Assembly (NCBI GenBank): GCA_963810005.1
Contig: CAWELY010000011.1
Coordinates: 122,458-186,457, forward strand
DNA: 64,000 bases
Direction of reading: 5' to 3'
From: an uncultured Acidobacteriota bacterium
GTDB lineage: Bacteria > Acidobacteriota > Terriglobia > UBA7540
Part shown: positions 4,486-63,066 of the stretch, in pieces
Layout: each line of letters starts with the position of its first letter
Position numbering within the stretch: position 1 is the first letter of the stretch
Program-made: the position numbers and the translations under genes
The notes under the pieces: model-generated
Seen by the model: only the letters and a program-made list of their open reading frames with translations
What the model was told of the DNA's origin: nothing
Databases searched by the model: none

Positions 4486-4744
4486 GAGGTGGGCGTACTT
4501 GGCCCTCCTCCGCGGCACTGGATCGGGAAATGACCGCTGGGGGACGCGGGTGCAAGGCCTGTCTTTGGGAGTGCGGCGACTCGTCGCCGCTTTTGCTCGC
4601 CGCGACTCGTCGCGGCGAACCTTTGCACCGGTGACGAGTCACCGGCGGCAAAAAGCGGGACCGAGTTCCCGCACTCCGAAAGCGACGCCACCGGTCAGAG
4701 CACCCGCGTTTGATGGCCATGCGAAAGCCGCTACGGACACGGGG
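4486..4744. repeat. 259-bp composite structured repeat, copy A
   Basis: Collinear with 6667-6925 at a constant offset of 2181 nt, with no indels and few mismatches. It holds internal palindromes (GGCGACTCGTCGCC, GGTGACGAGTCACC) and an outer complementary pair ACGCGGGTGC / GCACCCGCGT. Confidence 0.85.
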
Positions 4745-6666: not shown

Positions 6667-6925
6667 GAGGTGGGCGTACTTGGCCCTCCTCCGCGGCACT
6701 GGATCGGGAAATGACCGCTGGGGGACGCGGGTGCAAGGCCTGTCTTTGGGAGTGCGGCGACTCGTCGCCGCTTTTGCTCGCCGCGACTCGTCGCGGCGAA
6801 CCTTTGCACCGGTGACGAGTCACCGGCTGCAAAAAGCGGGACCGAGTTCCCGCACTCCGAAAGCGACGCCACCGATCAGAGCACTGGCGTTGGAGGGCCA
6901 TGCGAAGGCCGCTACGGACACGGGG
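6667..6925. repeat. 259-bp composite structured repeat, copy C
   Basis: Near-identical to 4486-4744, diverging only in the last ~60 nt. Confidence 0.85.
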
Positions 6926-10898: not shown

Positions 10899-12016
10899 GT
10901 TGACTACACTAAATATTGCGCGTAATTCGGTTTGGGTATACCATCCCTTGTATGGCCCGACCGAGTTTGCTCAAGCTGTCGGAAGCGGACGAGCGCCAGT
11001 TGCGGGAAGCCGCGGCCGACTCTCCTGATGCAGATTTTCGTGATGCCTGTCGCGCCGTTCTGAGCCTGGCCCGAGGGGCGACGCGCCCGCAGGTGGGGGA
11101 GCAGTTGCGCGTGCATCCGGCCACGGTCGGGCGTTGGGCGGCGCGCTATCGCCAGCGGGGGCTCGCCGGGCTTCGGGGCCCGGAGCACGATGGCCGCGGA
11201 CGACCGCGCCGCTTGCAGGTGGAGCATTTGCAATGGCTGCGGCAAACGGTTCTTACCTCGCCCCGGAAATTGGGTTATGCTTTCACCGCCTGGACCTTGC
11301 CGAGGCTGGCGGAGTTCTTGCAGCGGCAGACGGGGGTAACGGTGCAACCGCACTACCTGGGACGGCTGCTGCACCGCATGGGCATTGCCCGGAAACGTCC
11401 CAAGCGGGTGCTGGAAGGCAAACGCGATGAGGCCGCCCATGACCGCGCCAAAACTGAGTTGCAAGCCCTCAAGAAGCATCTGGGGCGGCGGAAAAGGACC
11501 GTCGTGATCAGCCAGGACGAAACCGAATTTCATCTTTACCCTTACCTGGTGGCGATCTGGTCGGTGGTGGGCAGTCCCCAACCGGAAGTGCGCACGCCGG
11601 GGAAGAATCAGAAGCGCGTCTTGTATGGAGGCCTGAACCTGAAAACCGGACACCTCACCAGCCACTGGGCGGCGACGAAAAGCGGTGCGCATTTTGTCGA
11701 ATATCTGGAAACGCTCTTGCATGATTATCCCGACCAGAAGATCCTCATGATCGCCGACAACGGCAGCTTCCATCATACGCTGAAAGTGGACGCCTTCGTG
11801 AAGGACCACCGCAACCGTTTGGAGATCAAATGGCTGCCTCCGTATTGCCCCGACCTGAACGACATCGAGCGCACCTGGAGACGGCTCAAGGCCAGCCATG
11901 CCTCCAACTTCCTGTTTAACTCCCTCGACGAGTTGGTCGATAACGTGCGCCAAGGCATTGGCGAACTGAATTCCACGGTCGCTACCAATTAAGAGCATTA
12001 TTTAGTGTAGTCAACT
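10898..12016 (+). mobile_element. IS630-family insertion sequence, apparently intact, with TA target-site duplication
   Basis: 18-nt perfect terminal inverted repeats AGTTGACTACACTAAATA (10898-10915 and 11999-12016, reverse complement). TA flanks both ends at 10896-10897 and 12017-12018. A single transposase ORF lies inside. Confidence 0.85.
10952..11992 (+). CDS. IS630-family DDE transposase
   Basis: MARPSLLKLSEADERQL.. N-terminal HTH region, then a catalytic region with ISQDETEF, IADNGSFH and LPPYCPDLNDIERTW. An alternative TTG start lies at 10916. Confidence 0.85.
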   Translation: MARPSLLKLSEADERQLREAAADSPDADFRDACRAVLSLARGATRPQVGEQLRVHPATVGRWAARYRQRGLAGLRGPEHDGRGRPRRLQVEHLQWLRQTVLTSPRKLGYAFTAWTLPRLAEFLQRQTGVTVQPHYLGRLLHRMGIARKRPKRVLEGKRDEAAHDRAKTELQALKKHLGRRKRTVVISQDETEFHLYPYLVAIWSVVGSPQPEVRTPGKNQKRVLYGGLNLKTGHLTSHWAATKSGAHFVEYLETLLHDYPDQKILMIADNGSFHHTLKVDAFVKDHRNRLEIKWLPPYCPDLNDIERTWRRLKASHASNFLFNSLDELVDNVRQGIGELNSTVATN

Positions 12017-12116
12017 TAGAAGCTAGAAGTTAGAATTTAGAAGGTAGAAGTTAGAAGGGAGATGCTAACCTCCTTCCTCCAGCTTCTAGCTTCTAACTCC
12101 TAGCTCCTAAATTCTG
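12017..12116. repeat. heptamer word array hairpin (TAGAAGN words and their complement)
   Basis: TAGAAGC TAGAAGT TAGAATT TAGAAGG TAGAAGT TAGAAGG, then a ~15-nt spacer, then the imperfect reverse-complement run (CAGCTTCTAGCTTCTAACTCCTAGCTCCTAAATTCTG). Confidence 0.6.
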
Positions 12117-12125
12117 ACTCTGAGG

Positions 12126-19648: not shown

Positions 19649-19682
19649 TGACTCTCACCGCTGAGGCGCGGAGACGCGGAGA

Positions 19683-19850
19683 AGTAAAAGAAAGTCAAAA
19701 GGCAAAGTGCAAAAGTCAAAAGTCAAAAGTGAAAGACCGTGCGTTCCCAAATCCTTTCCTTGAGGCGTGGAGACCGGACTAAAGGTAAGGATTTTGGAAC
19801 GTCTGGTTTTTACTTTTGCCTTTTGCACTTTGCGTTTTGCCTTTTGACTT
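19683..19850. repeat. heptamer word array hairpin (AAAGTCA words) between convergent genes
   Basis: The left arm is AAAGTCA AAAGGCA AAGTGCA AAAGTCA AAAGTCA AAAGTGA. The right arm is the complement (TTTTACTTTTGCCTTTTGCACTTTGCGTTTTGCCTTTTGACTT). The spacer holds its own small inverted repeat (CCCAAATCCTT / AAGGATTTTGG). Confidence 0.7.
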
Positions 19851-19894
19851 GTTCTTGTTCCTCCGTGCCGATGCGTCTCCTCGGTGAGCCGCCC

Positions 19895-22186: not shown

Positions 22187-22260
22187 TGGCTGGGAGGCAG
22201 GGATTCGAACCCCGATACGCAGATCCAGAGTCTGCAGTCCTACCGTTAGACGACCTCCCA
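22187..22260 (-). tRNA. tRNA-Gln: tRNA-Gln (anticodon CTG), 74 nt with encoded CCA
   Basis: The reverse complement is TGGGAGGTCGTCTAACGGTAGGACTGCAGACTCTGGATCTGCGTATCGGGGTTCGAATCCCTGCCTCCCAGCCA. It has a 7-bp acceptor stem, an anticodon stem GCAGA/TCTGC with loop CTCTGGA, and a GTTCGAATC T-loop. Confidence 0.9.
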
Positions 22261-28428: not shown

Positions 28429-29381
28429 CATTCCTTCGGCGGTTTCAGCAGTTCGCGCTTCAGCGCTGGGTTGCGGCTGGTCCAGTCGCCGGGGCGGTCG
28501 TGGTCCGTGGCGTACTGCTGGCGCACGGCTTCCAGCTTGGAGTCCATCTCATCCAGGAAACTGACCACCATGGCCTCGGCAAACATCGGTTCCTTGGGCG
28601 AGCCGAACTCCAGCTTGCCGTGATGGGAAAGAATAATGTGCTCGAGTTCGTCCTTGAGTTCGGCAGGGAAGTCGGGGATCTGGCTGAATCTTCGCCTGCA
28701 CCATTTCCAGCGCCATGGTGATATGCCCGATCAGTTGTCCGCGCGTGGAGTAGCGGAAACCGCGGGTGAAACTCAGTTCTTCCGTCTTGCCCATATCGTG
28801 GAGCACCAGGCCGGCCACCATCAAGTCGCGCCGCAGCCAGGGATAATGATCCGCCACGCGATCGGCCAGGGCGACGAGCGACGACACATGTTCCAAGAGG
28901 CCGCCCAGAAAGGCGTGGTGATAGCTCATCGCCGCGGGCGCCAGCTTGTACTTTTCCGCCATGGGCGGGTCTTCCAGAATGCTCAGCAGCAGAGCGCGCA
29001 GCGGACCGTCGCTCATGCGGCGCACGCGCTCCAGCAACGCGGCGTACATCTCCTCCGGGTCGCGCTGGGTGCGGGGAAGATAATCGAACAGGTTCACTTC
29101 TTCGGGCGCGCAAAGCGTGATCTTCCGAATGCGAAGTTGCGGCGTGCCGCGATAGCTTTCCACGTGCCCTTCCACCTGCACGATGTCGTCAGCTTCAAAG
29201 GCGGAGTGGTGCGTTCGGAGTAGTCCCAGAGCTTGGCGGAAATGACGCCCGTGGTATCTTGCAGGCTGAGGTCCAGATAGGCGGAGCCATTACTGGTGAT
29301 CTTACGTTCTTTGGATTGGACCAGAAAGGTGCTGCGCACCGGTGAGTCCGGCGTGAGGTCCTTGACAAAGGTCTGCTTCAT
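28428..29381 (-). pseudogene. OB-fold plus HD-domain nuclease (YhaM-like 3'-5' exoribonuclease family), two frameshifts
   Basis: The N-terminus MKQTFVKDLTPDSPVRSTFLVQSKERKITSNGSAYLDLSLQDTTGVI is the OB fold. The HD part is AMSYHHAFLGGLLEHV..LVLHDMGK. The restored tail is ILSHHGKLEFGSPKEPMFAEAMVV..PALKRELLKPPKE*. Confidence 0.7.
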
Positions 29382-30413
29382 TGAGTTCTTTTCGGCGGTT
29401 AGCGCCGCGCCCGGCGTTATCTTCGCCGGTGTCAATGTATCCCGGCGCCATAAAGATGTAACTGTCTTTGCGAAGTTGGGTCAGATATTCGCGCAGCTTG
29501 GGCTCCATGCGCTGGTTGTAGAGCATCTCCTGAACGCGCGATTCAACTTCTTCAAACTTGGGGATGCCGGGGCTGAAACGTTCCAGAAGCCTCAGGATCA
29601 TGTAGCCGTTCTTGGTTTGAAGCGACGTCGGTATATTCGTTGATATCGAGCTTGCTCGATGGCCGCGAGCGATTGCCGGCGCCACGCGTGCTGGTTTTCA
29701 TTGGAGCCGATGTCTCCGCCCTGAGTCAACACTAGGCCCGTCGGAATATTTCTTCACCACCTCGCTAAACTTGCGCGCCGCCCTTCAGTTCCGCCTCCGC
29801 GTCCTTGGCGCGTTTCTCCGCCTCCTCCGGCTTGTACTTCTCGGTGGAAATCAGGATTTCCGCGAGGTGGACCATGCCCTCCGATTTGAAATCGTCCTTG
29901 TGCTGATTGTAATATTTCCGCGCATCTTCCCGCGTCACGACGATGCGGGAGCCGACATCGCGGCTGATGACTTCCTGCATCAGGAGTTGGCGGCGGATCT
30001 GGTCTTTGAAGTCCTCCCAATTAACTGCCTTGTTGTTCCGCGTCCTTTTGCAGGTCTTCGATCGTCGCAAGGTTATCCTGCTTGCGCATTTGATCCAGCT
30101 TCTTGATGAGTCCGTGTCCACATTGATATCTTCGTCTTTGGCCTTTCTGGACCATCAGCGACTGGTCAATCAGGTTGCGCAGAAGGTTCTTGCTTTCATC
30201 ATTCAATTTGGCTTCGAGGTCGGCGCCGGAGTATTGCTGGGCAAGCTCGTCGCGAAGCTTGTCTCTTTCCCGTTCAAACTGGCGCTGGGTAATGATTTCA
30301 GCTGTTGACGCGCGCGATGATGCGTTCCACCACGTGGGCGGCCCGCAGCCTGGGGCGCCGCAAAAGTTGCCGCCAGGATGGCGATGTGCCAAAATTTTGA
30401 GCGTTCGTTTCAT
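29302..30413 (-). pseudogene. SurA/PpiD-like periplasmic chaperone with parvulin PPIase domain, many frameshifts
   Basis: Signal-like start MKRTLKIL at 30413. The SurA N-domain pieces are IITQRQFERERDKLRDELAQQY and NLLRNLIDQSLMVQK. The parvulin part is VHLAEILIS. The tail GYMILRLLERFSPGIPKFEEVESRVQEMLYNQRMEPKLREYL is spread over at least 4 frames. Confidence 0.65.
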
Positions 30414-30419
30414 GGTTTT

Positions 30420-30555
30420 CTCCAGCTGACAGCCGACAGCTAACAGCTCCGGCAGCTAACAGCCGACAGTTTACAGCTCGTACAGCCAACAGCTTTATTG
30501 AGCCAAGCTCTAGCCAGCCGTTACTGTAAGCTGTCGGCTGTGAGCTGTTAGCGCC
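30420..30555. repeat. heptamer word array hairpin (CAGCYRA words)
   Basis: CAGCTGA CAGCCGA CAGCTAA CAGCTCC..CAGCTAA CAGCCGA CAGTTTA CAGCTCG TACAGCCAA CAGC, then the complementary CTGTAAGCTGTCGGCTGTGAGCTGTTAGC. It lies between the SurA-like gene start and the mfd end. Confidence 0.65.
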
Positions 30556-30571
30556 AACTTCTAGGCGTATC

Positions 30572-33500
30572 TTAAGTCTGCCGCGCGTGCAATTCCTGCA
30601 AGACGTTTTGGACCTGGGTCAGCAGGTTGCCCTCGCGGTCGCGCCCGCGGAAGCGCAGGACGCGGTCCGGGCGGAAGCTGGCATCGCGCCGCCGCCGCAC
30701 AAACTGCGCCAGCCGCTGGGGATCAACCGGCGCCTGCTCATGGAACTTGATCCAGATTTCATCCCCTTTGCGCTCAACCGTTTGTACCAGCAAGCGCTCC
30801 GCCGCGCTCTTCAGCAAGGCGTAATCAAGCAGGTTGGAAACCGAAGGGGGAATGGGGCCGAAGCGGTCGGCCAGCTCGGCTTCCAGGTCGGCCCGCTCGG
30901 TAGGGCGTGGCGGCGCTGGAAATGCGCTTGTACATGCGCAGGCGCTGGTTCTCGTCGGGAATGTAGGAGTCGGGAATTTTGATGTCGAGGCCCAGGTTGA
31001 GCGAGGTGCGCACTTCAATCTTGGCTGGGAGCGCCCCGCAATTCCTCCACCGTCTGCTCCAGCATCTTGAGGTAGAGGTCAATGCCCATGGCGTTCAGGT
31101 GGCCATGTTGCTCGGCCCCCAACAGATTGCCGGCGCCGCGCAATTCCAGGTCCAGCGCCGCCAGGCGAAAGCCCGCGCCGAGATCGGAGAATTCCTTCAT
31201 CGCCGCGAGCCGCCGCCGGGCGATGGGCGTCAGGGTGTCTTCCGACCCGATCAGGAAAAAGGCGTAGGCGCGGCGGTTCGAGCGGCCCACGCGCCCGCGA
31301 AGCTGGTAGAGGTCGGCAAGGCCGAAGCGGTCGGCGTGATTCACGATGATGGTGTTGGCGCGGGGGATGTCCAGGCCGTTTTCGATGAGCGCCGTGGCCA
31401 CCAGCACATCGTATTCAGCCGCGCATGAACTTCAGCATCGCCCGCTCGAGGTCTTTCTCGCCCATCTGGCCGTGCGCCACGCCCAGGCGCGCCGTGGGCA
31501 GCAGGCGCTGCAAAAGCGCGGCCATCTGGAAAATCGATTCCACCCGGTTGTGCACGAAGAAGACCTGGCCCTGCCGTTGCATCTCCTGCATGATGGCGGA
31601 CTGGATGAGCGCCTGGTTGAAAGGCGCGACGGTGGTTTGAATGGCCAGGCGGCCGCGGGGCGGGGTCTCGATGACGGAAAGGTCGCGCAATCCGCCGAGC
31701 GACATGTGCAGCGTGCGCGGAATGGGCGTTGCCGACATGGTCAGGACATCCACGCCGGATTTTAATTTCTTCAGCTTCTCTTTGGCGGCCACGCCGAAGC
31801 GCTGCTCCTCGTCCACAATCAGCAATCCCAGGTCGCGCCAGTGCACATCCTTGGAGAGCAGCCGGTGCGTTCCGATCAGGATGTCCACGCGGCCGGCTTC
31901 CGCGTCGGCCATGATTTTCTTCTGCTCCGCCGCCGTGCGAAACCGGCTGAGCATTTCCACGCGCACGGGGAAAGGCGCCATGCGCTGCGCGGAAGGTGGT
32001 GAAGTGCTGGAAGGCCAGCACCGTCGTGGGGGCCAGCACCGCCACTTGGCGGCCGTCCTGAATCACTTTGAATGCGGCGCGCATGGCGAGCTCGGTCTTG
32101 CCATACCCCACGTCGCCGCAGAGCAGCCGGTCCATGGGCTCGGGGCTTTCCAGGTCGCGCTTGATGTCGGCAAGGGCGGTGAGCTGGTCGGGCGTCTCCT
32201 CAAATTCAAACGCGTCTTCGAACTCGCGCTGCCAGGGCGTGTCGGGGGAGGCGGCAACCCCGCCGCGCATTTTGCGTTCGGCGTAAAGTTGCAAAAGCTC
32301 CTGCGCCATGTCGCGCAAGGCGCGTTTGACGCGCGTCTTGGTGCGCTCCCAAGTGGCGCCCCCCAGCCGGTCGAGGGGAGGTTTGGCGCCTTCGTGGGAG
32401 CGGTACTTTTCCACCAGGTCCAGGCGCTCGAGCGGCACGTACAGCTTGGCCTCGTCCTGAAACGTCAGCAGCATGAAATCGCGCGACGCGCCCGCCACGG
32501 AGATTTGCCGCAGACCTTGATAAATGCCGATGCCGTGATCGATGTGGACGACGTAGTCGCCGACTTTCAGATCGCTGAGGTCGGAGATAAAGCTGGAGAT
32601 CCCGGAACGCTCGCGCCGCCCGCGCGCTGCCCAGTCAAAGCCACCGAACAAGTCCGCGTCCGCCAGCCACAATTGCCTCAGCTCGGGAAAGGCCACGCCT
32701 TCGCGAATCTCGCCCCGGGCAATGAGCACACGAGCGGTATCGAGCGATTGGGTGATCGGGTCAATTCTATTGCCGCTTGTCGATTGCCGATTTTCGATTG
32801 GTTCAATCGTCAATCGACCATCGGCAATCGACAATGAGCTCCCCGATCTCTCGATCACCCGATCATACGGAATCTCGTAGTCCTTCAAAATCTCCCGCAG
32901 ACGATCCACCTTGCCACTGGTGGGGACGACGAAAATGACGGACTCGCCGCGCTTCACCCGACTGCGAAGATCTTCGACCAACTCCTTGACCCTCCCTTGA
33001 TACTTGGGAGGAGGTTGGGTGAGGAGAATCGGGCCATCAGAGGAATCGGGTGATCGGTTGATCGGGTGATCGGGTGAATGAACTGCTCGCTTGTCACTCG
33101 TCACTCGCCACTCGTCACTGCTCTCAAGAACTGCTCGCTCATCACTCGTCACTCGCCACTTGTCACTACTTTCACGCCACTCGTCACTGCTCTCAGCGCC
33201 TTCGGGCGGGAAGTATAAGTCGCCGCCGATAACCACCGCTTGCGAGCTGGTTTCCGCGGCCGGCGTGACGTTCTCAAGGCCCAATTCTTTGAGCGAAATT
33301 TGTGGAACGCTCTGGATGGCTTGAAGGAATTCTGGTTCGGTCAGATAAACTTCCCGGGGTTCTGGGCGGGGCGGAACGATGTCGCGAACTTCCTCGAAGC
33401 TTGCCGTCAGGCTCTCGATCGTAGGCGAAATTTGGGCGCGGCGGTCGAGGAGTTCGTCCCAAACCAGCACCGGACGATCCAGGAGGGAAAACAGCGTGTG

Positions 33501-34391
33501 CGGGTGGGGCTCGACGAGGGGAACAAAAAACTCCCACCCCGGGAAAGTATTGGAATGTTCCGCCGCCCACTCGGGTTCGCGTTCCGGCAGTGATGTTCCT
33601 CGCGATTGCGCGTGCTCGCGGGCGCGCAAAGTGAGCACGCGCACCAGCCTTTCGAAGAATTGCGGGGAACGCTGGGCTTCCGAAAGCGGCAGCAGCAGCG
33701 CTTTCGGTACGGGTTTGCGCGAGCGTTGCGATGACGGGTCGAATTCCCGCACGGACTCGAGTTGGTCACCAAAAAATTCCAGCCGGAAGGGCCATTCGGC
33801 CTCGGGAGGGAAAGCGTCCACAATTCCGCCGCGCACGGAGTATTGACCAACGGCAGCGACGGGCTCCCCCGGCTCGTACCCAACGCTCCGCAGGTGCTCC
33901 AGCAGGTCGTCCAGACTCAACTCGTCACCCACCTTGAGTTCGAGTGCGAGGGAGGAGTAGAAGGCGCTTTCGCGGAGCCGCCCCAAGGCGGCGGAAACGG
34001 GCGCGAAAATCACGCGCACCCCGCCTCGCGCCAGGCTCCAAAGCGCTACGGCGCGCTGCTCCTGGATTTCCGCGTGCGGCGAGCGGCCTTCGTACGGTGA
34101 GCAGTCCAGCCCGGGCAAGATTTGGACCGAACTGCCGGCGCCGGGCTCCAGACCTTCCAGAAATGTCGCTGTCGTTTGCCGGTAGTTCTGCGCCGCCTCA
34201 TTGTCCTGAGTCAAAACCACCACCGGCCGCTTCACTTGATGCGCCAGCGCCGCTACCACCAACGCCTTGGCCGTGGGCGTCAGGCCGGAGATGGCAATAG
34301 GCTGTGTGCCAGGCTCGGCCAGCGCCGCAACCGCCGCGCGCACGCTGGCGTGCGCAAGAAGTGGTCGGAGCAGGGAATGAATATCGGCCAT
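30572..34391 (-). pseudogene. mfd: transcription-repair coupling factor Mfd; the N-terminal ~2400 nt are in one frame, the C-terminal third is broken at least 4 times
   Basis: ORF 31341-34391 carries the UvrB-homology and RNAP-interaction parts up to DRLLCGDVGYGKTE..VAVLAPTTVLAFQH. Helicase motifs continue in ORFs 31415-31981 (LIVDEEQRFGV, TLTMSATPIPRTL), 31015-31407 (QLRGRVGRS), 30825-31082 and 30572-31018. Confidence 0.9.
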
Positions 34392-34469: not shown

Positions 34470-34560
34470 GAATTGTAAATGATAAATGGTAAAGTATAAA
34501 AGGGATGAACTTGTGATTAACCATTTACAATTTATCATTTACCATTTACACCCTATTTCC
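34470..34560. repeat. heptamer word array hairpin (GTAAATG/ATTTACA words)
   Basis: TTGTAAATGATAAATGGTAAAGTATAAAAG..spacer..CCATTTACAATTTATCATTTACCATTTACAC, an imperfect inverted pair just upstream of mfd. Confidence 0.65.
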
Positions 34561-36527: not shown

Positions 36528-36616
36528 GTGTAGTGCGGACCTGTTTTGTAGGTCCGCGGTTCGTCCACGATGGGCATGGAAAAGCCGCGGACCTACAAAA
36601 CAGGTCCGCGCTACAC
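36528..36616. repeat. double-hairpin REP-like element (GCGGACCTGTTTTGTAGGTCCGC .. spacer .. GCGGACCTACAAAACAGGTCCGC)
   Basis: ~89-nt element whose two arms are inverted copies and each arm is itself a hairpin. Further copies lie at 38877-38961 and 59201-59284, with a solo arm at 14753-14783. Confidence 0.8.
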
Positions 36617-38701: not shown

Positions 38702-38876
38702 GATTTCGTCATCTTGACATGAGGTCCTGCGCCCGTAAACCCCCTTGTGGAGTGTCGGCGCCGGTGGCCAGACATCTCTGGTACAAGCCCGGCGGCGGCG
38801 GTATAATGATGCGTCGCAATTTGTTGGGGTGATATTGAGACGGTCCATAAGCTTTTGGGGACGGCGCGCCGCCGGC

Positions 38877-38961
38877 GTAGCGCGGACCTGTTTTGTAGGT
38901 CCGCGGCTTGTTCCCTATGGGTAAGGAAATGCCGCGGACCTACAAAACTGGCCCGCGCTAC
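38877..38961. repeat. double-hairpin REP-like element, copy 2
   Basis: GTAGCGCGGACCTGTTTTGTAGGTCCGCGG..CCGCGGACCTACAAAACTGGCCCGCGCTAC. Confidence 0.8.
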
Positions 38962-39041
38962 GTTTTCAAGCAGCGGGTAGATTTGCACCGCGAGAGGGAT
39001 TTCCGAGGAAAACTGAGAGCATCAACAACGAGGAGGATGAA

Positions 39042-39577: not shown

Positions 39578-39778
39578 GTCCGGAGTCCGGTGTCCGAAGT
39601 TCGAAGTCCGGACGTTGCGATTCATTGCCGCTCAGGCGCTGAGACGGGGAATAGGTGTCAGGTATCAGGTGTCAGGTGTCAGGTGTCAGGTGTCAGGGTT
39701 TTACTGGTACCTGACACCTGACACCTTATTGGACTTCGGACTCCGGGACTCCGGACTTCGGACTCCGGACTTCCATTC
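39578..39778. repeat. nested two-family heptamer word hairpin (outer CCGGAGT words, inner GTGTCAG words)
   Basis: The outer arms are GTCCGGAGTCCGGTGTCCGAAGTTCGAAGTCCGGAC and GGACTTCGGACTCCGGGACTCCGGACTTCGGACTCCGGACTTCC. The inner arms are GGTGTCAGGTATCAGGTGTCAGGTGTCAGGTGTCAGGTGTCAGG and CCTGACACCTGACACC. Confidence 0.75.
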
Positions 39779-43924: not shown

Positions 43925-44125
43925 CAGTCGCTCAGTCCGGAGTCCGGCGTCCGGAGTCGGGAAAATAACAACAGGCCTTACTTATCGCATGTCTTATAAA
44001 TCTCCCGAACGAGTTCACGCGCTTTCCCCCAAGCTTGAAGATCCTCAAAGCGTCGTATGGTTGCCATGTTCTTTCGACTCCGGACCCCGGACTCCGGACC
44101 CCGAACTCCAGACAGCAGACTCGGA
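43925..44125. repeat. CCGGAGT-word inverted arms inside the ABC operon spacer
   Basis: GTCCGGAGTCCGGCGTCCGGAGTCGGG at 43925-43951 and GACTCCGGACCCCGGACTCCGGACCCCGAACTCC at 44085-44118, flanking ~130 nt of lower-GC sequence. Confidence 0.6.
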
Positions 44126-49540: not shown

Positions 49541-50812
49541 ATGGGTCCGCATCCAGGGGGTAAGCGTATTCCGAGAATTCTCGCGCTGCTGCTGGTGTTG
49601 ATTGCGGCCATTGCTCTCATTCCCTCACTTGGAAACGCCCAAAAAGCCGCCAAGAAACTCACCAAGCAGGACATCATCGATCTTCTGACCGGCGACGTGT
49701 CCAGCGACGATGTGGCGCAGGAGGCGCGGAAATCGGGCATCTCCTTTCAAGTTACCGCCTCCGTGGCGAAGGAAATTCGCGACGCCGGTGGAACGGATGA
49801 CTTGATTCGCGTGCTGCGAACGCTGGCGCCCCCTGCTCCCGCGCGCCGCTCCGCGGGCACCCCCCACGCCAACGCCCGCTGCCTCTCCCCCCGTTCTGAT
49901 GATTGAGTCCAGTCCCGGCCAGAGCCAAGTGTACATTGATGATGAACCGGTGGGATCGACCAGCCAGCAGGGCCGCCTGAAGTTGACCCGGCTTGCCGCG
50001 GGAGATCACCGCGTGCGCATCTCGCTGAGCGGTTACCAGGATCACGAAGAGACCGTCACCCTCACCGCAGGAGAAGTCACCACCGTCGCCGCCACGCTCC
50101 AGCAGCCCGCCGCGCCGCTCGAACCCACCTCCCTGCGTCCCCAGGCGGAAGAGACGCCGACGGCGAACCCGGCCCGGCCAAGCCGGATATCTTGGCGTCC
50201 AGCCCATGCAACAACAGCCCGCGGGGGCGCGCGGGGTGGTGATCTCCGGCGCATTGCCCGGCGGCCCGGCTGACCAGGCGGGATTGAAAGCTTACGACAC
50301 CATCCTGGCCGTCAATGGGCAGCAGGTGACCACACCGCAGGAACTCCGGCGAGCCTTGGCGGCCATCAGGCCGGCGAAGTGGTGCAAGTCACTTGGTACA
50401 ACGGATCAAGCAACGTCACGCAGGCAAGTCCGGCTGGTGCCTGCCCCCGCGCCAGGCCAGGCCTCGGCGCAGCCCGTTCGCCTTCCACGCTATATGCCGC
50501 AAACGGCTCCATGTCATTTCGCGTGGCCCACGACCACGGACTGAGCGGCCAGGATTACTGCGTGGGGTTGATGTCCATCGGCAATGGAATGATCTATTAC
50601 AAGAGCTGACAATGGCATTCACAATTTTGAAATACCGTTACACTCGATCAAGGAGGCCCGCCGGAACGGGGTGTATCTTGTCGGGTACGGGGCGTTCCAT
50701 ATTCGCACGAAGGGCGGCATCGAATTACAACTTTGCGGCCCTCAACCAACAAGGCGAGCCCGAGCCCCCGGACGCGATTTTAACCGCCATCAATAGCGCC
50801 ATGGGAAGGTGA
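49541..50812 (+). pseudogene. secreted PEGA-domain plus PDZ-domain protein, multiply frameshifted
   Basis: Signal MGPHPGGKRIPRILALLLVLIAAIALIPSLGNA. The PEGA part is SSPGQSQVYIDDEPVGSTSQQGRLKLTRLAAGDHRVRISLSGYQDHEETVTL. The PDZ part is GARGVVISGALPGGPADQAGLKAYDTILAVNGQQVTTPQEL. The tail lies in further frames. Confidence 0.55.
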
Positions 50813-50907
50813 GCCGGGTTGGATCCAGCATCTTGCATTTTCGGTGCAAGAGCGCGGACGCCCGCTGGCTCTGCTCAGGCCAATTCTAAAATCCAAAATC
50901 AAAGGTC

Positions 50908-52028
50908 CTACGTCCAGCGGAACCAGCGCAATGCCAGCAGGTAGGAGAGAACTCCCCAGAGGCCCAGCACGAGCAGGCGTGCCGCATTGGTGGGCCAGCG
51001 GCGCGCCTTCCAGAATCGCGGCGCGCAGGGCGTCGTTCAGCGCGGTGAGCGGCAGCGCTTTGATCAGCGGGTGAAGGAGGGCGGGGAATCGCTCGTAAGA
51101 AAAGAAGACGCCGGACAGAATCCACATGGGCATCATGACGAGGTTGATCAGTCCGCTGACCGTCTCGATTTTTTGCGCGCGGCTGGCGGTGAGCAGCCCC
51201 ACGCCGCCGAAGCAAAGCGCTCCGAGCGCGCTGATGATCAGGATGGAAGTCCACGAGCCCGCGACGCGCATGTGGAACGCCAGCACGCCGAATCCGAGCA
51301 GCAGCGCCAGCTCAATCAGCATCAACACCAAGCGGCTGCTGGCCAGGGCCAGCAGAAAGTCACTGCGGCGCATGGGGCTGGCGACAAATCGCTTGAGCAG
51401 CTTGCGCTGGCGCAAGTCCACCAGGGCAAATCCAATTCCCCACATGCCGGAGTTCATCAGGTTCATGCCCAGCAGGCCGGGAATCAGGAAGTCGATGTAG
51501 CGCGCCCCGGGCTCGCTGGAGATGCGGCCGGTGGTGGGGACGCTGTTCTTTCTTCCCGCGGCCGCCTGGAGAGCGTCATCGGTGACGCTGCGGGCCAGCA
51601 CGCTTTCCGGGCGCGCCGGGTCATAGAGGTATTCAAACCCGCCGGCGTGCGGCGTCACCACCAGGTCGTATTTGCCCAGGCGAAACTGGTTGAGCGCTTC
51701 GGTGGCAGGGAGCAAATCCACATGCACCGTGCCTGCCGCCGACGCGCGTCGGAACAGTTCCATCGCCTGCGCTGCCTCCGGGCCCTGCCACCAGCGCCAC
51801 GCGGCTGACGTCGGCAGGCTTGTTGCGGAAGGCAATCCCCAGCCCCAGCGCCAGGAGAATGGGAAAGCCGAATACCCAGAAGATGACTTCCGGCTCGCGG
51901 TACATTTCCTTCAGGCGGGCCAGGAGCAGGAGCCCGTAGCTTTTCCAACGGCCGGTAATCGGGCGATCGGGTGACCGGTGATCGGGCGATCGGGACGGCA
52001 CGGTCATCGGGTGATCCGGTTCGAGCAT
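50908..52028 (-). pseudogene. ABC-2 type transporter permease (paralog of 42519-43919 core), two frameshifts
   Basis: N-terminal piece RWKSYGLLLLARLKEMYREPEVIFWVFGFPILLALGLGIAF (ORF 51633-52028). The body is in ORF 50780-51835. The restored C-terminus is NAARLLVLGLWGVLSYLLALRWFRWT*, with its stop at 50908-50910. The first ~20 codons are GATCGGG-word repeat. Confidence 0.7.
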
Positions 52029-52190
52029 TGCGAAGCTGCACGGTGATCTCGAGGGTCGTAGATCGTCAAATTTTGGATCCGAACTTTGGCGTTCCGATCT
52101 CTCGCATCATAATCGAATCCTCAGATCTCCGATTTCCAGATTCGACGATCGAATCCATCGCCAATCGCCGATCACCCGATCCGCAAATCC
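51952..52190. repeat. GATCGGG/CCCGATC word blocks between ABC ATPase and permease
   Basis: CGGTAATCGGGCGATCGGGTGACCGGTGATCGGGCGATCGGGAC..GGTCATCGGGTGATCCGG at 51952-52020, and ATCGCCAATCGCCGATCACCCGATCCGC at 52160-52187, plus intervening GATC-rich words. Confidence 0.55.
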
Positions 52191-52191
52191 C

Positions 52192-53133
52192 TCACTCCTC
52201 CCGCAGGTGCCGTCCCGTGAGGTGCACGAAGACGTCCTCCAGGCTGGCTTGGCGCGTGGTGAGGTGCAGCAAGTGCCCGTTGCGGCTTTGTATGGCCGCG
52301 AGCAGGGCGGGGATGGTTTCATGCGGTTCGCGCACGCTCAGCACCACGCGCCCGTCCTCCTCGTGTACGGCTTCGACGCCGGGCAGCGAGCGCCACGCCT
52401 CCAGCTCGCCGGGGACATTGCCCGTGGCGTCGAATTCCACCATGTGGTGCCCGCCCAAGCGCTCGATCAGCTCGGAGGGCGTTCCGGAGGCGATGGTGAG
52501 GCCGTGGTCGATAATGGCGATGCGATCGCAGAGGCGCTCGGCTTCGTCCATGTAGTGCGTGGTCAGCAGGACGGTGCCGCCGCGCTGCTGGAATTGCCGG
52601 ATAACTTCCCAAAGCTGGCGCCGGCTTTGCGGATCGAGGCCCGTGGTGGGTTCGTCGAGGAACAGGATTTTGGGATTGGCCACCAGCGCCGTGGCCACCG
52701 CCAGCCGCTGTTTTTGCCCGCCGGAAAGTTTGCCCACCCAGGCGTCGGATTTTTCCGTGAGCGCCATCTCCGCCATCACTTCCTCGATCGCGCGCGGGCG
52801 GCGATAAAAACTGGCGAACAACTCCAAGGTTTCGCGCACGGTGAGCTTTTCCGCCAGGCGCGTTTCCTGAAGCGAGATTCCCATCAGCTCGCGGAGTTCG
52901 CGATTGTGCGTCTGCCAGTTATTGCCCAGAATTTCGATTTCGCCGGAAGTGGGTTCCAGCAATCCTTCCAGGATTTCGATGGTGGTGGTCTTGCCCGCCC
53001 CATTGGGGCCCAGCAGGCCGAAGCACTCGCCGGCGTGGATCTCCAGATCGAGCCCGCGAACGGCCTCGACGTTGCCCTCGTAGGTTTTGCGCAGCGCCCG
53101 GCAGCGAACGGCGACGTCCATGGTCGGCATCAT
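52192..53133 (-). CDS. ABC transporter ATP-binding protein (ABC-2/DrrA type); in this sequence it is in frame with the upstream YjbQ-like domain
   Basis: Internal Met MMPTMDVAVRCRALRKTYEG.. with Walker A GPNGAGKTT, LSGGQKQR, FLDEP and TTHY. No stop codon separates it from 53199-53616. Confidence 0.9.
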   Translation of the reverse strand: MMPTMDVAVRCRALRKTYEGNVEAVRGLDLEIHAGECFGLLGPNGAGKTTTIEILEGLLEPTSGEIEILGNNWQTHNRELRELMGISLQETRLAEKLTVRETLELFASFYRRPRAIEEVMAEMALTEKSDAWVGKLSGGQKQRLAVATALVANPKILFLDEPTTGLDPQSRRQLWEVIRQFQQRGGTVLLTTHYMDEAERLCDRIAIIDHGLTIASGTPSELIERLGGHHMVEFDATGNVPGELEAWRSLPGVEAVHEEDGRVVLSVREPHETIPALLAAIQSRNGHLLHLTTRQASLEDVFVHLTGRHLREE

Positions 53134-53198
53134 AGCGGATTGCGGCGCGGGTGTGAACTCACTTGCGCGCGCGGCGAGCCGATCCACCAGGCCGATGC

Positions 53199-53616
53199 CT
53201 AGCTCGCCTACCACAGTAACCACCACCGTGCGCTGGCGTCCGCGCACATCGCATTCGAGGTGGAAGATTTGCTGCCATGTTCCGAGCAGCAGTTTGCCCT
53301 CGGCAATGGGCACCGTCAGCGAGGGGCCCAGCAGGGTGGCCTGCAAATGCGAATGGCCGTTGCCGTCGTGCCACGCCTGCTCGTGGCCGTAGTTGCGGCT
53401 GGGGGGGATGAGCTTGTTGAGGATGGCCGGCAGGTCCTGCTGTAGCCCGGGCTCAAACTCGATGGTGCCGATTGCCGCCGTGCTGCCGACATTGAAAACG
53501 TTGACGGTCCCGGTTTTGATGCTCGACGCGGCGACGGCGGCGGCAACCTGAGAAGTGATGTCGTGCATGTCGCCTTGCCCCGCGGTGCGAAGCGAAAACT
53601 GTTGTTGGTGAACCAT
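53199..53616 (-). CDS. YjbQ/UPF0047-family domain (secondary thiamine-phosphate synthase family), N-terminal part of the 474-aa ORF 52192-53616
   Basis: MVHQQQFSLRTAGQGDMHDITSQV..TGTVNVFNVGSTAAIGTIEFEPGLQQDL..HDGNGHSHLQATLLGPSLTVPI..GTWQQIFHLECD..RTVVVTV is full-length YjbQ-like (~139 aa). Confidence 0.75.
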
Positions 53617-53714
53617 GTCTCTATATTCCCACGATGCTCGAAATCGTGGAACATATTTTTCTCAGCGCAGAATTATCCCGCGCCCCGCGGGATCCTTTTC
53701 ACAGGTTCTTACGA

Positions 53715-57019: not shown

Positions 57020-57747
57020 ATGGCGTACCCAAGCATTCCAAAACGCGTAGCGGCGGTCAGGGAGGTAATAATCGTGCAACCGGCCGAAGCTGAAGGTCCG
57101 CCGCACTTAGGACTTGGTGATGGATTCTCGCTTCTGGAGATGATGGCGGTGATCGAAGACCAGTGGCGAGTGATTAGTGGCCAGTGGCGAGCAGGAAAGG
57201 CGGAAGAACAGTGGCGATTGACGAGCGGAAAGAGCAGGTCACAGGGAAAAGGTTACGGGGAAGAGAAGCAAGAGAGAATAGTGACAAGTGACGAGCGGAA
57301 ACCCAAAGCTGAACTACAGTGACGGGTGGCAAGTGACGAGTGACGAGCGGAATGACAACTCGCGTGGCTTCTCGCTTCTGGAGATGATGACGGTGATCGA
57401 CGCTGATCCTCATCCTGGCGACCTTCGCCATGCCCATTTACCATACGGTGGTCAGTGCGGGCGCGCGAAGCCACGCTGCGCGAGGACCTCTTCACGCATG
57501 CGCTCCCAGATCGACCGCTTCACCCACGACAACGAGCGCGGCCCCGCCTCACTCGACGAATTGGTGGATAAGGGTTACATGGGGGCCATCCCCACCGACC
57601 CCTTTACCGGCTCGAACGAAACCTGGCAAGTCGAAACCGAGGACACGTCCCTCTCCCTCGATGATTCCGCCCCGCTGGGAATCGTGGACGTCCACAGCGG
57701 CTCGCGAGGACAATTCGCTCGACGGCACGCCCTACAGTAGTTGGTAG
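57020..57747 (+). pseudogene. type II secretion / type IV pilin-like pseudopilin (prepilin N-terminal methylation motif), split by a repeat block and frameshifted
   Basis: The GFSLLEMM(A/T)VI motif occurs twice (57122 and 57366). After the second copy, the restored frames give TLILILATFAMPIYHTVVSA.AREATLREDLFT.MRSQIDRFTHDNERGPASLDELVDKGYMGAIPTDPFTG, which is GspG-like. There are 3 frame changes within ~100 nt. Confidence 0.6.
57157..57365. repeat. GTGGCGAG/GTGACGAG heptamer word block lying between the two 35-nt pilin duplicates
   Basis: CAGTGGCGAGTGATTAGTGGCCAGTGGCGAGCAGG..AGTGACAAGTGACGAGCGG..GTGACGGGTGGCAAGTGACGAGTGACGAGCGG. The same word family is found inside mfd at 33085-33195. Confidence 0.65.
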
Positions 57748-57956
57748 CGCAGGACCCGCTCTCCGGTCCTGCGGCTTTTCCCGCGGTCCGGGGTCCGAAG
57801 TCCGGAGTCGCAAGAACCGGGGCGAGTGGCAAGCAGGAAAGCCAGAAGAACAGGGCCGCGTTCCACGAAAGGGAACTACATCCTTAGCCCGTCAACTGAC
57901 GGATGAAACCGGAGGAAGCCCGGAAAATCAGGTTCCGGCCCGGAAGGGGCCAAACC

Positions 57957-58452
57957 GGTGGCACGGGCGTCTCGCCCGCGAAGGGTCACGGCCAGGATGG
58001 CCGTGCCACAACATTTCCCCGGTGGCACAGGCGTTCCGCCCGTGAAGGGTCACGGCCAGGGCGGCCGTGGCACAACATTTCCCCGGTGGCACGGGCGTCT
58101 CGCCCGCGAGCAGTCACGGCCAGGATGGCCGTGCCACAACATTTCCCCGGTGGCACGGGCGTCTCGCCCGCGAGCAGTCACGGCCAGGATGGCCGTGCCA
58201 CAACATTTCCCCGGTGGCACGGGCGTCTCGCCCGTGAAGGGTCACGGCCAGGACGGCCGCGCCACAACATTTCCCCGGTGGCACGGGCGTCTCGCCCGTG
58301 AAGGGTCACGGCCAGGACGGCCGTGCCACAACATTTCCCCGGTGGCACGGGCGTCCCGCCCGTGAAGGGTCATGGCCAGGACGGCCGTGCCACGTCGGGC
58401 AGGGCCCGTCACCCGAGGCTCTTACGGGCACGGGCAGGATGCCCGTGCCACT
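57957..58452. repeat. tandem array of ~7 units of a 64-bp repeat, plus a degenerate terminal unit
   Basis: Units start at 57957, 58021, 58085, 58149, 58213, 58277 and 58341, an exact 64-nt period. Each unit is GGTGGCACGGGCGTCTCGCCCG.GA.GGTCACGGCCAGGATGGCCGTGCCACAACATTTCCCC with two hairpins. Confidence 0.9.
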
Positions 58453-58632
58453 TCCTCCCGCGTGACACACTTCCCCACATCGGTTATCGACAGTGCGGGG
58501 TGAGGAGATGAATCAATTTGCCGGCTTCGAAAGGTTTTCAATGGCCCGATGTCCCGATGAACCGATGGCCCGATCCCCAGACCCGTGACGAGGGGCAAGG
58601 GCAGAGGGCAGATTCAAGTCTCTGACCTGTAG

Positions 58633-58652: not shown

Positions 58653-59200
58653 TGATCACCCCCGGAGCGCATTTTCGCTGAGGTTAAGGTGCGGAAGTTA
58701 GCGGGCCTTATTGTCCGAAGATGGAAGGGCGGGGCTTTACAGGGTCCGAAAAAACTCGCCTGCGCCGTGTTTCCGGGCTTTTTGTTCTCAATATTGAGGG
58801 AAGCGACATATTATCCCTCGTCCCAATAGGCGGGTACTAAGCACCGATTCGTCCCTTTTCGTGGGCAATCGTGGGTTATCAACCCAAAGGTCCGCTCAAG
58901 GGGTGATTGGAATCGCACTTTGGAGCACCGTATTTCACTTTTAGGCCTGCACTCGCTAGAACCGCTTAGCACCCTCTGGCCACCATCTTCGGGCACCTGC
59001 CCACTGTCCACTTCCTACTTGCCCTTCGAGTGCGCAATGCGCGTTCCCGCCATTCCCTGCAAGGCTTCAGGAGTCCCTTCCGGGGAGTTTCGGTTATCGT
59101 CGGGTTCAGGTGAGATGGCCCGATGACCCGATGGGCCGATTCTCTTCGGCTTCCTTCTGACTATGCAATCCACGGCGAATTGAGTACTCTGAAAGCAGGT

Positions 59201-63054: not shown

Positions 63055-63066
63055 CCACTACTTTTC

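Follow-up and report, generated by a model that had tools for sequence, protein, structure and literature searches.

RESULTS

The mfd gene and its reading frame

The window analysed here, a 64000-nt stretch of DNA from an uncultured Terriglobia bacterium (a free-living soil acidobacterium), carries on its minus strand a gene for the transcription-repair coupling factor Mfd, and within the coding sequence lie two blocks built of 7–8-nt words. The features of the gene, in window coordinates, are as follows.

30572..34391, minus strand: mfd (transcription-repair coupling factor) coding region
33080..33195, minus strand: block 2, heptamer part, GTCACTC-family words (sense GAGTGAC/GAGTGGC)
33043..33078, minus strand: block 2, octamer array of four ATCGGGTG units (sense CCCGATCA), encoding SPDHPINRSPDS
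32866..33042, minus strand: conserved coding segment between the blocks (GPILLTQPPPKYQGRVKELVEDLRSRVKRGESVIFVVPTSGKVDRLREILKDYEIPY)
32842..32865, minus strand: block 1, outer arm on the mRNA 5′ side, three (TGATCGGG)-type units read as DRVIERSG
32766..32835, minus strand: block 1, inner hairpin of TTGNCGA/AATCGNC heptamers, encoding LSIADGRLTIEPIENRQSTSGN
32745..32761, minus strand: block 1, outer arm on the mRNA 3′ side, (CCCGATCA)-type units read as DPITQS

Assignment of the gene was indicated both by a PDB sequence search, which returned Mfd matches at 1e-86, and by fold comparison, where the matches were again to Mfd, including a TMt of 0.81 to 2b2n. The domain order is that of Mfd/TRCF proteins, i.e. 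a UvrB-homology N-terminal module, the RID (RNA-polymerase-interacting domain), an SF2 translocase and a C-terminal TRCF domain, and the Pfam domains of the orthologues are PF17757, PF02559, PF00270, PF00271 and PF03461. The gene is not read in a single uninterrupted frame: it is intact from 34391 to approx. 31990 and broken further downstream, the C-terminal half being found in shifted frames. Comparison with the mfd sequences L081 and L083 placed four 1-nt insertions at about 31988, 31421, 31026 and 30902, all in surroundings almost identical with these two sequences and none inside block 1 or 2. The part in shifted frame is still highly conserved (one recovered 42-residue stretch is 98% identical with the orthologue P0001), and among the orthologues listed most Mfd proteins are full length (1116–1321 residues), with a few shorter entries of 760–1062 residues. 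The four insertions are probably assembly errors; 1-nt frame breaks cluster at 28.4–32.0 kb of the window and also occur in a pseudopilin gene.

Neither block breaks the frame, as had been proposed in an earlier sequence-only reading of this DNA, and both are read within a 1016-codon ORF (34391..31341, minus strand). We found no support for an intein, an intron or an antisense gene, and the plus-strand ORF at 31641–32837 was rejected as a gene, being the usual antisense ORF of a GC-rich gene.

Structure of the two blocks

Block 1 (32745–32865) is a nested inverted repeat whose sequence, arms and translation, as first proposed, were confirmed by re-reading of the DNA. Its RNA fold has an energy of −62.8 kcal/mol (z = −6.19), with none of 200 shuffled sequences folding as well. 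The outer arms comprise GGGTGATCGGG at 32750–32760 and CGATCACCCGATC at 32852–32864, the inner arms GTCGATTGCCGAT at 32779–32791 and ATCGGCAATCGAC at 32820–32832, and over 32777–32800 and 32811–32834 the arms of the inner hairpin are 92% complementary. In the outer arm on the 5′ side, AGA replaces the in-frame TGA of the pure word (TGATCGGG). This nested layout (array, array, loop, array′, array′) is also that of intergenic arrays such as the one at 39578–39773; outside block 1, the window shows no enrichment of its inner word (17 matches compared with 8.9 expected).

Block 2 (33043–33195) spans 51 codons and contains direct repeats only (fold z = +1.0), so that the description of both blocks as hairpin elements holds for block 1 and fails for block 2. 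The sequence and its translation do bear out the reading of block 2 as a mixture of GATCGGG and GTCACTC words with a duplicated ESSDEWR. The heptamer part encodes ESSDEWR/VTSDERAV repeats and contains a 48-nt direct duplication (33080–33126 and 33128–33174, 89% identity); as the stretch 33126–33194 (69 nt, 23 codons) is missing from the two closest relatives, this duplication is recent. The four ATCGGGTG units span 33045–33077, and this octamer array and the near arm of block 1 (32842–32865), 185 nt apart, are complementary. On the suggested length check, block 2 (153 nt) is a multiple of three but the block 1 interval (121 nt) is not; the net excess of block 1 over the empty allele of its relatives is 72 nt, i.e. 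24 codons. A synonymous-site test for constraint at the DNA level gave slightly raised codon identity where block 2 could be aligned, relative to its flanks, in four of five comparisons (0.92/0.77, 0.87/0.79, 0.74/0.62 and 0.71/0.64, with the reverse at 0.56/0.63), a weak trend over approx. 20 codons that faintly suggests a possible constraint other than neutrality.

Location of the blocks in the Mfd structure

The segment between the blocks forms the helix–strand–helix–strand core of a small domain that separates the UvrB-like module from the RID. In an AF2 model, pLDDT values fall below 50 at residues 371–466 and 513–551, on either side of this ordered core, and the Ser/Pro/Asp/Arg-rich loops encoded by the blocks are probably disordered, a prediction for which the evidence is limited because the model is poor overall (mean pLDDT 57). 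The alignment of the inter-block segment to E. coli Mfd slipped out of register and could not be relied on, and placement of the blocks therefore depends on weak matches to the Thermus and Mycobacterium tuberculosis Mfd proteins and on the secondary structure of the mediocre AF2 model; on this footing, both sites appear to be permissive loops bordering this small domain, which is poorly conserved. No counterpart of either block was found in the E. coli, Mycobacterium or Thermus Mfd structures.

Empty and filled alleles among Mfd orthologues

In orthologous Mfd proteins with 70–89% identity the words of the blocks recur at both sites, with wide variation in length and content (22–73 residues at site 1, that of block 1, and 33–109 residues at site 2); these array-bearing orthologues were drawn from independent JGI, ENA and NCBI assemblies. 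The motif SSDEWRVTSDE-HSPDHPITRSPD is recognizable in most orthologues of at least 75% identity. Distant orthologues (57–65% identity) have short non-repetitive linkers at site 2 and 22–27 residues at site 1. Both the expectation that the blocks would prove lineage-specific on alignment to orthologues and structures and the statement that canonical Mfd proteins are devoid of such segments were thus upheld, the distant orthologues and the solved structures having neither block.

At site 1, close relatives such as P0010 have a 24-residue ‘empty’ loop, and this allele (FSTVxxEKEKRD...) is conserved from distant through to very close relatives. Empty and filled alleles are intermixed at about 7% divergence: filled P0002 pairs with empty P0018, the sister pairs Q and P0001, and P0003 and P0004, differ in inner content, and identical inner contents recur across different Mfd lineages. 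A short intermediate is seen in P0048 (YERLTERSGDRAGKAATDRCGVL), which has the ancestral length with one word already present. The filled allele replaces approx. 60 nt of the empty allele, so that site 1 looks like a replacement of about this length rather than a clean insertion. In addition, comparison of the Mfd sites with the empty allele revealed no target-site duplication and no clean insertion boundary, and together with the replacement this leaves insertion of a discrete mobile element without support. In L081, the allele at site 1 contains the motif (GATCGGGN)n-GAACAAAG...CTGTTC-(ACCCGATC)n, which it shares with unrelated metagenome elements. Rather than being private to one genome, the arrays occur across the clade and are hypervariable at two hot spots.

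The same words in non-coding arrays

The words of the blocks had been thought to be shared with intergenic arrays, and this is the case in the window and in many metagenome contigs. Within the window, GATCGGGTGATCGGG (up to three mismatches) has 18 matches compared with 3.25 expected, a count reached in none of 100 shuffles, and GTCACTCGTCACTCG has 17 compared with 1.73 expected (again none of 100 shuffles). Arrays of these words in the window include the following, the first and the third being non-coding.

51957..52181, strand not applicable: hairpin array, GATCGGGN units at 51957–52019 with an inverted copy at 52155–52181
57160..57351, strand not applicable: GAGTGAC/GTGGCGA word array of the same family as block 2
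58541..58583, strand not applicable: GATGGCCC/GATGAACC array, with a second at 59114–59140

The first of these sits between the minus-strand ORFs 50783–51910 and 52195–53661, and the second lies upstream of a GspG-like pseudopilin gene, flanked by two copies of the N-terminal coding motif of that gene. In orthologous Mfd proteins, the word of the arrays at 58541–58583 and 59114–59140 is read as PMNRWPDE within block 2. Exact two-unit copies of the other heptamer words of the window are essentially absent from 1.5 Mb of related DNA, GATCGGGT and GAGTGAC excepted, and a lexicon shared across the class therefore lacks support. A search of 32600–33300 against Rfam gave chance-level matches only (E = 0.29 and 0.41, far below gathering scores), and none of these word or peptide strings was found in a literature search. 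We also considered G-quadruplex formation, but ViennaRNA with G-quadruplex energies folded both (GGGUGAUC)4 and the window arrays into ordinary hairpins.

A DNA scan of metagenomes found (CCCGATCA)3 in more than 120 contigs, usually in non-coding sequence, and its inverted partner in 34 of these, on the 5′ side in all. The copies differ in unit number, loop length (12–218 nt) and content. Many unrelated loci have identical octamer arrays that agree in polarity and in their sub-terminal GAACAAAG/CTGTTC motif. In eight contigs the array is in frame with Pfam domains on both sides, the host proteins being ComEC (twice, the array located inside DUF4131), an ABC transporter, Mfd (twice), a MiaB-like protein, PriA and MacB/FtsX. 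Verified intragenic arrays thus amount to 8 of 120, or about 7%, and the suggested search for in-frame arrays in other genes was successful. Ten further arrays with stop-free flanks have Pfam domains only downstream, which places them upstream of genes and not in frame. A search of a 5.8-billion-protein set with the peptide (HPITRSPD)n yielded 19 hypothetical ORFs only, all tiny (29–79 residues) and hence attributable to non-coding arrays; long proteins with short inserts are beyond the reach of this peptide search and are covered by the DNA scan.

DISCUSSION

Repeat DNA as a probable source of protein sequence

The reading that we favour, with a probability of roughly 0.75, is that a dispersed family of 7–8-nt word arrays was copied into mfd, where it came to occupy permissive loops, subject to a filter on reading frame and stop codons. 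The family consists of tandem word arrays, often as (nested) inverted repeats, that populate the intergenic regions of this Terriglobia lineage. Once in mfd, they would be transcribed and translated with the gene to give Ser/Pro/Asp/Arg-rich loops, and selection on Mfd would purge variants that break the frame or carry stops, leaving arrays to persist whose net length is divisible by three and in which (TGATCGGG)n and (GAGTGAC)n have AGA or TGG in place of their in-frame TGA. Because 7 and 8 have no common factor with 3, an array encodes one cyclic peptide whatever its frame (PDHPITRS, or SDEWRVT once the in-frame TGA has become TGG), and such arrays are easily tolerated as a result. Contents turn over rapidly, probably through duplication of units or blocks, deletion between arms and replacement of the interior, and we infer that the arrays arise and spread through slippage with template switching or recombination, or through the action of some enzyme. 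Of the earlier proposal that the insertions are ‘tolerated or selected’, tolerance is supported, and we saw no sign of positive selection; the arrays in mfd are probably merely tolerated.

It is unlikely, in our estimate, that the peptides are instead selected protein features, i.e. flexible or regulatory linkers, or phosphorylation or interaction motifs such as SPDHPITRSPD that tune Mfd, with the likeness of their DNA to non-coding arrays being secondary. Such a role would fit the in-frame occurrence of arrays at the same two sites throughout the clade, the persistence of SSDEWRVTSDE-HSPDHPITRSPD, the slightly raised codon identity of block 2 and the position of in-frame copies in other proteins, likewise between domains. 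However, length and content are highly variable, to the point of presence/absence polymorphism among near-identical Mfd proteins; a single DNA word yields peptides from either strand (DRVIERSG and DPITRS), most copies of the words are non-coding, and distant and solved Mfd proteins work without the segments.

Slightly less probable again is an origin in place, in which slipped-strand expansion of ordinary coding sequence at the two loops produced the arrays independently of those between genes and with no transfer between loci. The duplication in block 2 (48 + 21 nt) is clearly local, short intermediates such as P0048 exist, and the missing target-site duplication agrees with this origin. Against it stand the identical octamer arrays, of one polarity and with the GAACAAAG/CTGTTC motif, at many unrelated loci, the same inner contents in different Mfd lineages and the combination of two or three word families in site 1 hairpins.

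We regard it as very improbable that mfd is a contingency (phase-variable) gene in which gain or loss of a 7- or 8-nt unit switches Mfd off and on. The unit lengths are not divisible by three. In surface-modifying genes of the neuO type, long perfect tracts act as on/off switches. Switching by heptanucleotide repeats within genes is thus known, for example from neuO (PMC13001214). The mfd arrays share with neuO a 7-nt unit within coding sequence, three units of which give seven residues and keep the frame, but they are short (at most four units), imperfect and located in a housekeeping gene that gives no sign of switching; most of the orthologues listed are full length, and the frame breaks of mfd in the window all fall outside the arrays. 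That the blocks are assembly artefacts, through repeat-induced misassembly or collapsed reads, is hardly credible despite the cluster of 1-nt frame breaks nearby and in the pseudopilin gene, since arrays of the same kind lie at the same positions and in frame in dozens of independent assemblies, with perfectly colinear conserved sequence on either side of the blocks.

The arrays in mfd provide a clear clade-wide example of non-coding repeat DNA that has become protein in a conserved housekeeping enzyme, and the related genomes offer empty, filled and collapsed alleles side by side. A more far-reaching and tentative possibility, to which we give rather less than even odds, is that Terriglobia have an undescribed, actively generated system of combinatorial word-array hairpins whose arms are polar (G-rich 5′ and C-rich 3′) and whose sub-terminal motifs are conserved; a dedicated enzyme or templated copying would make or move them, and their repeated entry into inter-domain loops of essential proteins would be a continuous source of new, fast-evolving disordered segments from non-coding DNA. 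If so, this lineage would be a natural system for the origin of new disordered linkers, would show how selection edits repeats into translatable sequence (by stop removal and a length filter), and would offer a route to what makes or moves tandem-word hairpins; we know of no answer to that question for the comparable repeats of cyanobacteria and xanthomonads. In practical terms, the arrays inflate and diversify protein lengths, and in soil metagenomes they can lead alignment, assembly and gene calling astray.

Relationship to known repeat systems

By analogy, the arrays appear most to resemble the Rickettsia palindromic elements (RPEs) together with the heptamer repeats of Xanthomonas and Nostoc. 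RPEs are described as short palindromic repeats found in frame within protein-coding genes (Ogata et al. 2000, as cited in PMC10969869). Both they, as that account presents them, and the word arrays form a dispersed repeat family, palindromic in RPEs and in block 1, with copies both in intergenic DNA and, in frame, within unrelated housekeeping genes, at fold-compatible positions where copies are (or, for the arrays, would be) translated as extra peptide segments (PMC10969869). The present family is indeed multi-copy, dispersed and also found outside genes, with in-frame copies in ComEC, the ABC transporter, PriA, the MiaB-like protein, MacB/FtsX and Mfd. RPEs are, by the same account, discrete elements of about 100–150 bp that share a consensus across the family and encode a conserved peptide (PMC10969869), whereas the arrays are assembled from 7–8-nt words whose number and combination vary. 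Sister lineages differ in content, block 2 lacks a palindrome (z = +1.0, compared with −6.2 for block 1), and the arrays do not form discrete RPE/MITE-like elements, which would have a consensus length and sequence, terminal inverted repeats and a target-site duplication. The host also differs, being a free-living soil acidobacterium.

Heptameric repeats include GGGAATC of Xanthomonas, GGGGAYT of Nostoc and the cyanobacterial STRR heptamers (PMC4692102). As there described, these are dispersed 7-nt G-rich words containing ...ATC, variable in unit number, mostly intergenic near gene ends and sometimes in inverted pairs; likewise, the present arrays have tandem units, here of 7–8 nt, in variable copy number and are dispersed and mainly intergenic. 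The intragenic minority is similar too, at 7–11% in xanthomonads (PMC4692102) and about 7% (verified) here. The main word here is an octamer, GGGTGATC, accompanied by several others, unlike the Xanthomonas and Nostoc heptamers, and the four G-tracts characteristic of a G-quadruplex in the STRR class did not yield one in silico. Nested multi-word hairpins with strict arm polarity, and clade-wide in-frame occupation of conserved multi-domain proteins, are features seen here for which the available text of PMC4692102 has no mention.

Finally, REPs are single imperfect palindromes of 20–40 bp with a GTAG or CGTC tag, mobilized by RAYT transposases. The arrays share with REPs and REPINs (PMC3116915, PMC3733652) the character of short hairpin-forming intergenic repeats in high copy number; unlike REPs, they are made of tandem words with neither tag, and no GTAG tag is visible at the block ends. 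As a separate observation, the genome also carries GTAG-type REP-like palindromes.

The mfd gene and its two blocks

The minus-strand ORF that holds both blocks encodes the transcription-repair coupling factor Mfd, with PDB sequence matches down to 1e-86 and an AF2 model that matches Mfd structures, among them 2b2n, an N-terminal fragment from E. coli, at TMt 0.81. Its nearest proteins are annotated Mfds from uncultured Terriglobia/Acidobacteriota, with 85% BLASTP identity over residues 1-800 and 89% identity in the multiple alignment.

Features of the mfd region (window positions)
34391..31341, minus strand, mfd ORF
33043-33195, minus strand, block 2, occupying variable site 2
32745-32865, minus strand, block 1, occupying variable site 1
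~31988, ~31421, ~31026 and ~30902, minus strand, single-base insertions in mfd, from alignment to two relatives
29410-30428, surA-like gene, split over three frames
28431-29381, HD-domain gene, split over three frames
28431-32000, span of the frame-break cluster

The mfd frame is lost four times downstream of ~31990, at insertions whose surroundings are otherwise highly conserved (98% identity over one recovered stretch of 42 residues). No frame break occurs in the first 2.4 kb of the gene, and none falls within block 1 or block 2. The surA-like and HD-domain neighbours are broken in the same manner as mfd, and more distant genes are intact (the FabA, Dus and PilZ neighbours are clean). This cluster probably marks a place where the assembly is locally rich in errors, in preference to gene decay, the alternative being that the decay is very recent.

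The arms, words (tandem repeat units of 7-8 nt) and translations that the sequence-only reading had described for both blocks were all found where it had placed them. In gene sense, block 1 runs from three TGATCGGG-type octamers through four TTGNCGA heptamers to a short loop, after which come five AATCGNC heptamers and then CCCGATCA-type octamers. Its RNA is predicted to form one long nested hairpin (-62.8 kcal/mol, z = -6.19, 0 of 200 shuffles as good), whereas block 2 folds no better than shuffles (z = +1.0), so that the description of both blocks as hairpins holds for block 1 only. The window shows no excess of the heptamer that makes up the inner part of block 1. Lengths divisible by three, also expected, were found for block 2 (153 nt, 51 codons) but not for the 121-nt interval of block 1, for which the relevant length is the excess over the array-free (empty) allele, 72 nt or 24 codons.

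Block 2 is built from direct repeats. Its GTCACTC-family heptamers are joined by a duplication of 48 nt, by a 21-nt (7-codon) repeat, which accounts for the reported duplication of ESSDEWR by encoding it twice, and by four ATCGGGTG octamers. These octamers form an array whose complement is the near arm of block 1, at a distance of 185 nt. Neither of the two closest relatives has the 69-nt repeat expansion at 33126-33194. Where block 2 can be aligned, its codon identity is slightly above that of the flanks, a weak trend, and we found no indication of function for the array-encoded peptides.

The end of the UvrB-homology module falls before residue ~370 of the protein (2b2n aligned over 331 columns; pLDDT 80-93 to ~369). 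Between the blocks the AF2 model places a helix (468-480), a strand (484-489), a helix (492-504) and a strand (509-512), a segment that weakly matches the Mfds of Thermus and M. tuberculosis at the corresponding place; block 1 is followed by the strand ..LIARG.. and then the RID. By published domain descriptions of E. coli Mfd, the inter-block region would be D3, a poorly conserved domain, which would place block 2 where D1b and D3 join and block 1 in a loop of D3. In the AF2 model pLDDT is below 50 for both blocks, and because the model is weak overall (mean 57) we only infer that the segments they encode are disordered.

Alleles at the two sites

Both variable sites were cut out of the retrieved Mfd orthologs between conserved anchors (..KDYEIP and IARGEIREG.. 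for site 1, ..IGGDLYFPP and TQPPPKYQG.. for site 2). Site 2 varies from 33 to 109 residues, and SSDEWRVTSDEQAV and HSPDHPITRSPDS-like segments are present there in almost all orthologs of at least 75% identity; in distant Mfds (57-65% identity) the site is a short, non-repetitive linker.

Site 1 has three kinds of allele. The empty allele (22-27 residues, FSTVxxEKEKRDAAPSxPAxGGVL) is found conserved in distant clades as well as in very close relatives, including P0010, P0012, P0015, P0018, P0019 and P0021. Filled alleles, which carry an array, have 35-73 residues and fall into several recurrent types: DRVIERSGDRVNKDQPTSQVSSVHPITRSPDHPI...; ..ESSDKWRVTSDERAV.SPDHPITRSPD..; ..EIGSSSHRAIESSKKQITQSPD.PMNRWPD..; and the window's own version. 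Short alleles (P0036, P0042, P0048) look like collapsed hairpins. The short site-2 linkers and the reach of the empty allele into distant clades bear out the suggestion that the blocks are lineage-specific.

Empty and filled alleles are intermixed at ~7% divergence, both in nearest-neighbour tables and on a neighbour-joining tree built from the conserved parts, with sister pairs that differ in site-1 allele type. As DNA, the filled allele of locus L081, the closest relative, reads (GATCGGGN)4-GAACAAAG...CTGTTC-(ACCCGATC)4+2, a hairpin whose interior is unlike that of block 1. The filled allele replaces ~60 nt of the empty allele, and comparison of the two at site 1 revealed no target-site duplication. 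From this distribution and the DNA-level comparison of relatives, sites 1 and 2 are therefore old hot spots with fast turnover of content, and the window's versions are recent variants.

The same words outside mfd

The octamer is over-represented in the window (18 observed, 3.25 expected), as is the GTCACTC word (17 against 1.73), and no shuffle reached either count. The proposed sharing of words between the mfd blocks and intergenic arrays was confirmed by their recurrence at the first four positions below. The intergenic DNA is rich in tandem 7-8-nt arrays, often nested inverted repeats.

Arrays elsewhere in the window
51957-52181, GATCGGGN arrays with an inverted copy, between two ORFs
57160-57351, GAGTGAC/GTGGCGA array
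58541-58583, GATGGCCC/GATGAACC array
59114-59140, GATGGCCC/GATGAACC array
39578-39773, nested intergenic array: (GTCCGGA)n, (AGGTGTC)6, loop, (GACACCT)n, (TCCGGAC)n
12016-12120, 19654-19888, 30423-30552, 34471-34549 and 43933-44113, other intergenic tandem-heptamer hairpins

The GATGGCCC/GATGAACC word is read as PMNRWPDE in block 2 of Mfd orthologs. The intergenic heptamer hairpins, including 39578-39773, use the words TTAGAAG, AAAGTCA, CAGCYRA, ATTTACC and GTCCGGA/AGGTGTC; nesting is seen in some, and most directly precede or follow genes. In the two closest relatives, the orthologous intergenic DNA lacks the array downstream of mfd. Within the window, only the mfd arrays lie inside long validated coding sequence. 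A GspG-like pseudopilin N-terminal coding motif (GFSLLEMM.VI, ~31 nt) occurs at 57128-57158 and 57371-57401, bracketing a 210-nt stretch rich in GAGTGAC/GTGGCGA words, and the downstream GspG-like gene is also frame-broken.

Metagenome contigs were scanned for (CCCGATCA)3, which was present in at least 120. Among the matches listed, 34 contigs had an inverted (GATCGGGN)n array within 300 nt, always with the G-rich GATCGGGN array 5' of the C-rich one (34:0); the opposite order, equally stable in principle, did not occur. The loops in these matches span 12 to 218 nt, often with other word arrays, and the motif GTGAAC(A/G)AAG...CTGTTCAC often adjoins the arms (loci L084-L203, e.g. L106, L114, L126, L173 and L087). 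Such strict arm polarity, with a sub-terminal motif in common, may reflect a defined element or some directional process.

At least 60 stop-free codons stood on both sides of 30 arrays among the matches listed. Pfam domains flanked the array on both sides in seven tested ORFs, so that in-frame arrays also occur in genes other than mfd: two encode ComEC and the others an ABC exporter, a MiaB-like radical-SAM enzyme, PriA, a MacB/FtsX permease and a divergent Mfd, with its array at the equivalent of site 2. An eighth case, the Mfd ortholog on L125, was identified from sequence context. All eight arrays lie between annotated domains except those of ComEC, which fall within the DUF4131 match. Ten arrays of a second batch had Pfam domains downstream only and therefore lie upstream of genes. 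Verified in-frame, intragenic cases make up ~7% of arrays among the matches listed, and the proteins matched in a peptide search were all tiny ORFs that had been called on non-coding arrays. One very long array (L153:3400-3650, ~25 tandem GGGTCATC/GGGTGATC units) means that expansion far past the usual 3-5 units is possible.

Origin of the arrays

The primary object is most likely DNA, a dispersed family of hairpin-prone tandem-word arrays, because one word is read as protein on either strand (as DRVIERSG and as DPITRS), non-coding copies are the majority and the layout inside mfd equals the intergenic one. Translatability is partly a matter of arithmetic: neither 7 nor 8 has a factor in common with 3, so that an array gains exactly 7 or 8 codons with every three units, and its cyclic peptide is the same whichever frame is read. 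CCCGATCA is stop-free in all frames; its complement TGATCGGG and GAGTGAC have an in-frame TGA once per three units, and at exactly those positions the mfd copies carry AGA (..ATC GAG AGA TCG..) or TGG (..GAG TGG CGA..). Selection on Mfd therefore filters the arrays for length and for stops, as is plain from the sequences.

For the arrays' origin and change we infer steps of three kinds: local duplication, which is evident in block 2; deletion between arms, which would give the collapsed alleles; and replacement of interiors, which, like the presence of the same types in different lineages, requires that lineages recombine or that sequence is copied in from other loci. We identified no enzyme, target duplication or donor copy.

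The RPEs of Rickettsia are in-frame palindromic repeats within housekeeping genes (PMC10969869). Xanthomonas and Nostoc have dispersed heptamer arrays, mostly intergenic, sometimes inverted and 7-11% intragenic, and cyanobacteria have STRR heptamers (PMC4692102). The mfd case unites the two, sharing in-frame repeats in a housekeeping gene with the former (palindromic in block 1 but not in block 2) and dispersed, mostly intergenic arrays with an intragenic minority with the latter. To these it adds hairpins that nest several words, a strict polarity of the arms, stops that have been edited and clade-wide hypervariable occupation of two Mfd loops. None of the literature searched describes these words or peptides, or such repeats in Acidobacteriota.

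Other repeats of the window

A 64-nt tandem repeat at 57955-58393 (6.9 copies, 93% identity) has a unit of two palindromes, GTGGCACGGGCG..CGCCCGTG and GGCCAGGACGGCC..GTGCCAC; with no variable spacers, it was rejected as a CRISPR array. REP-like perfect or near-perfect palindromes with GTAG-type heads (e.g. GTAGCGCGGACCTGTTTTGTAGGTCCGCGG) at 36528-36616, 38876-38962 and 62969-63055 are a second, conventional repeat family of the same genome. The only Rfam match at gathering score in the window is a minus-strand tRNA gene (22190-22260). In addition, a ~130-nt palindromic element (GGCCTGTCTTTGGGAGTGCGGCGACTCGTCGCC...) is present in two copies, at 4556-4689 and 6737-6870, 2.18 kb apart.
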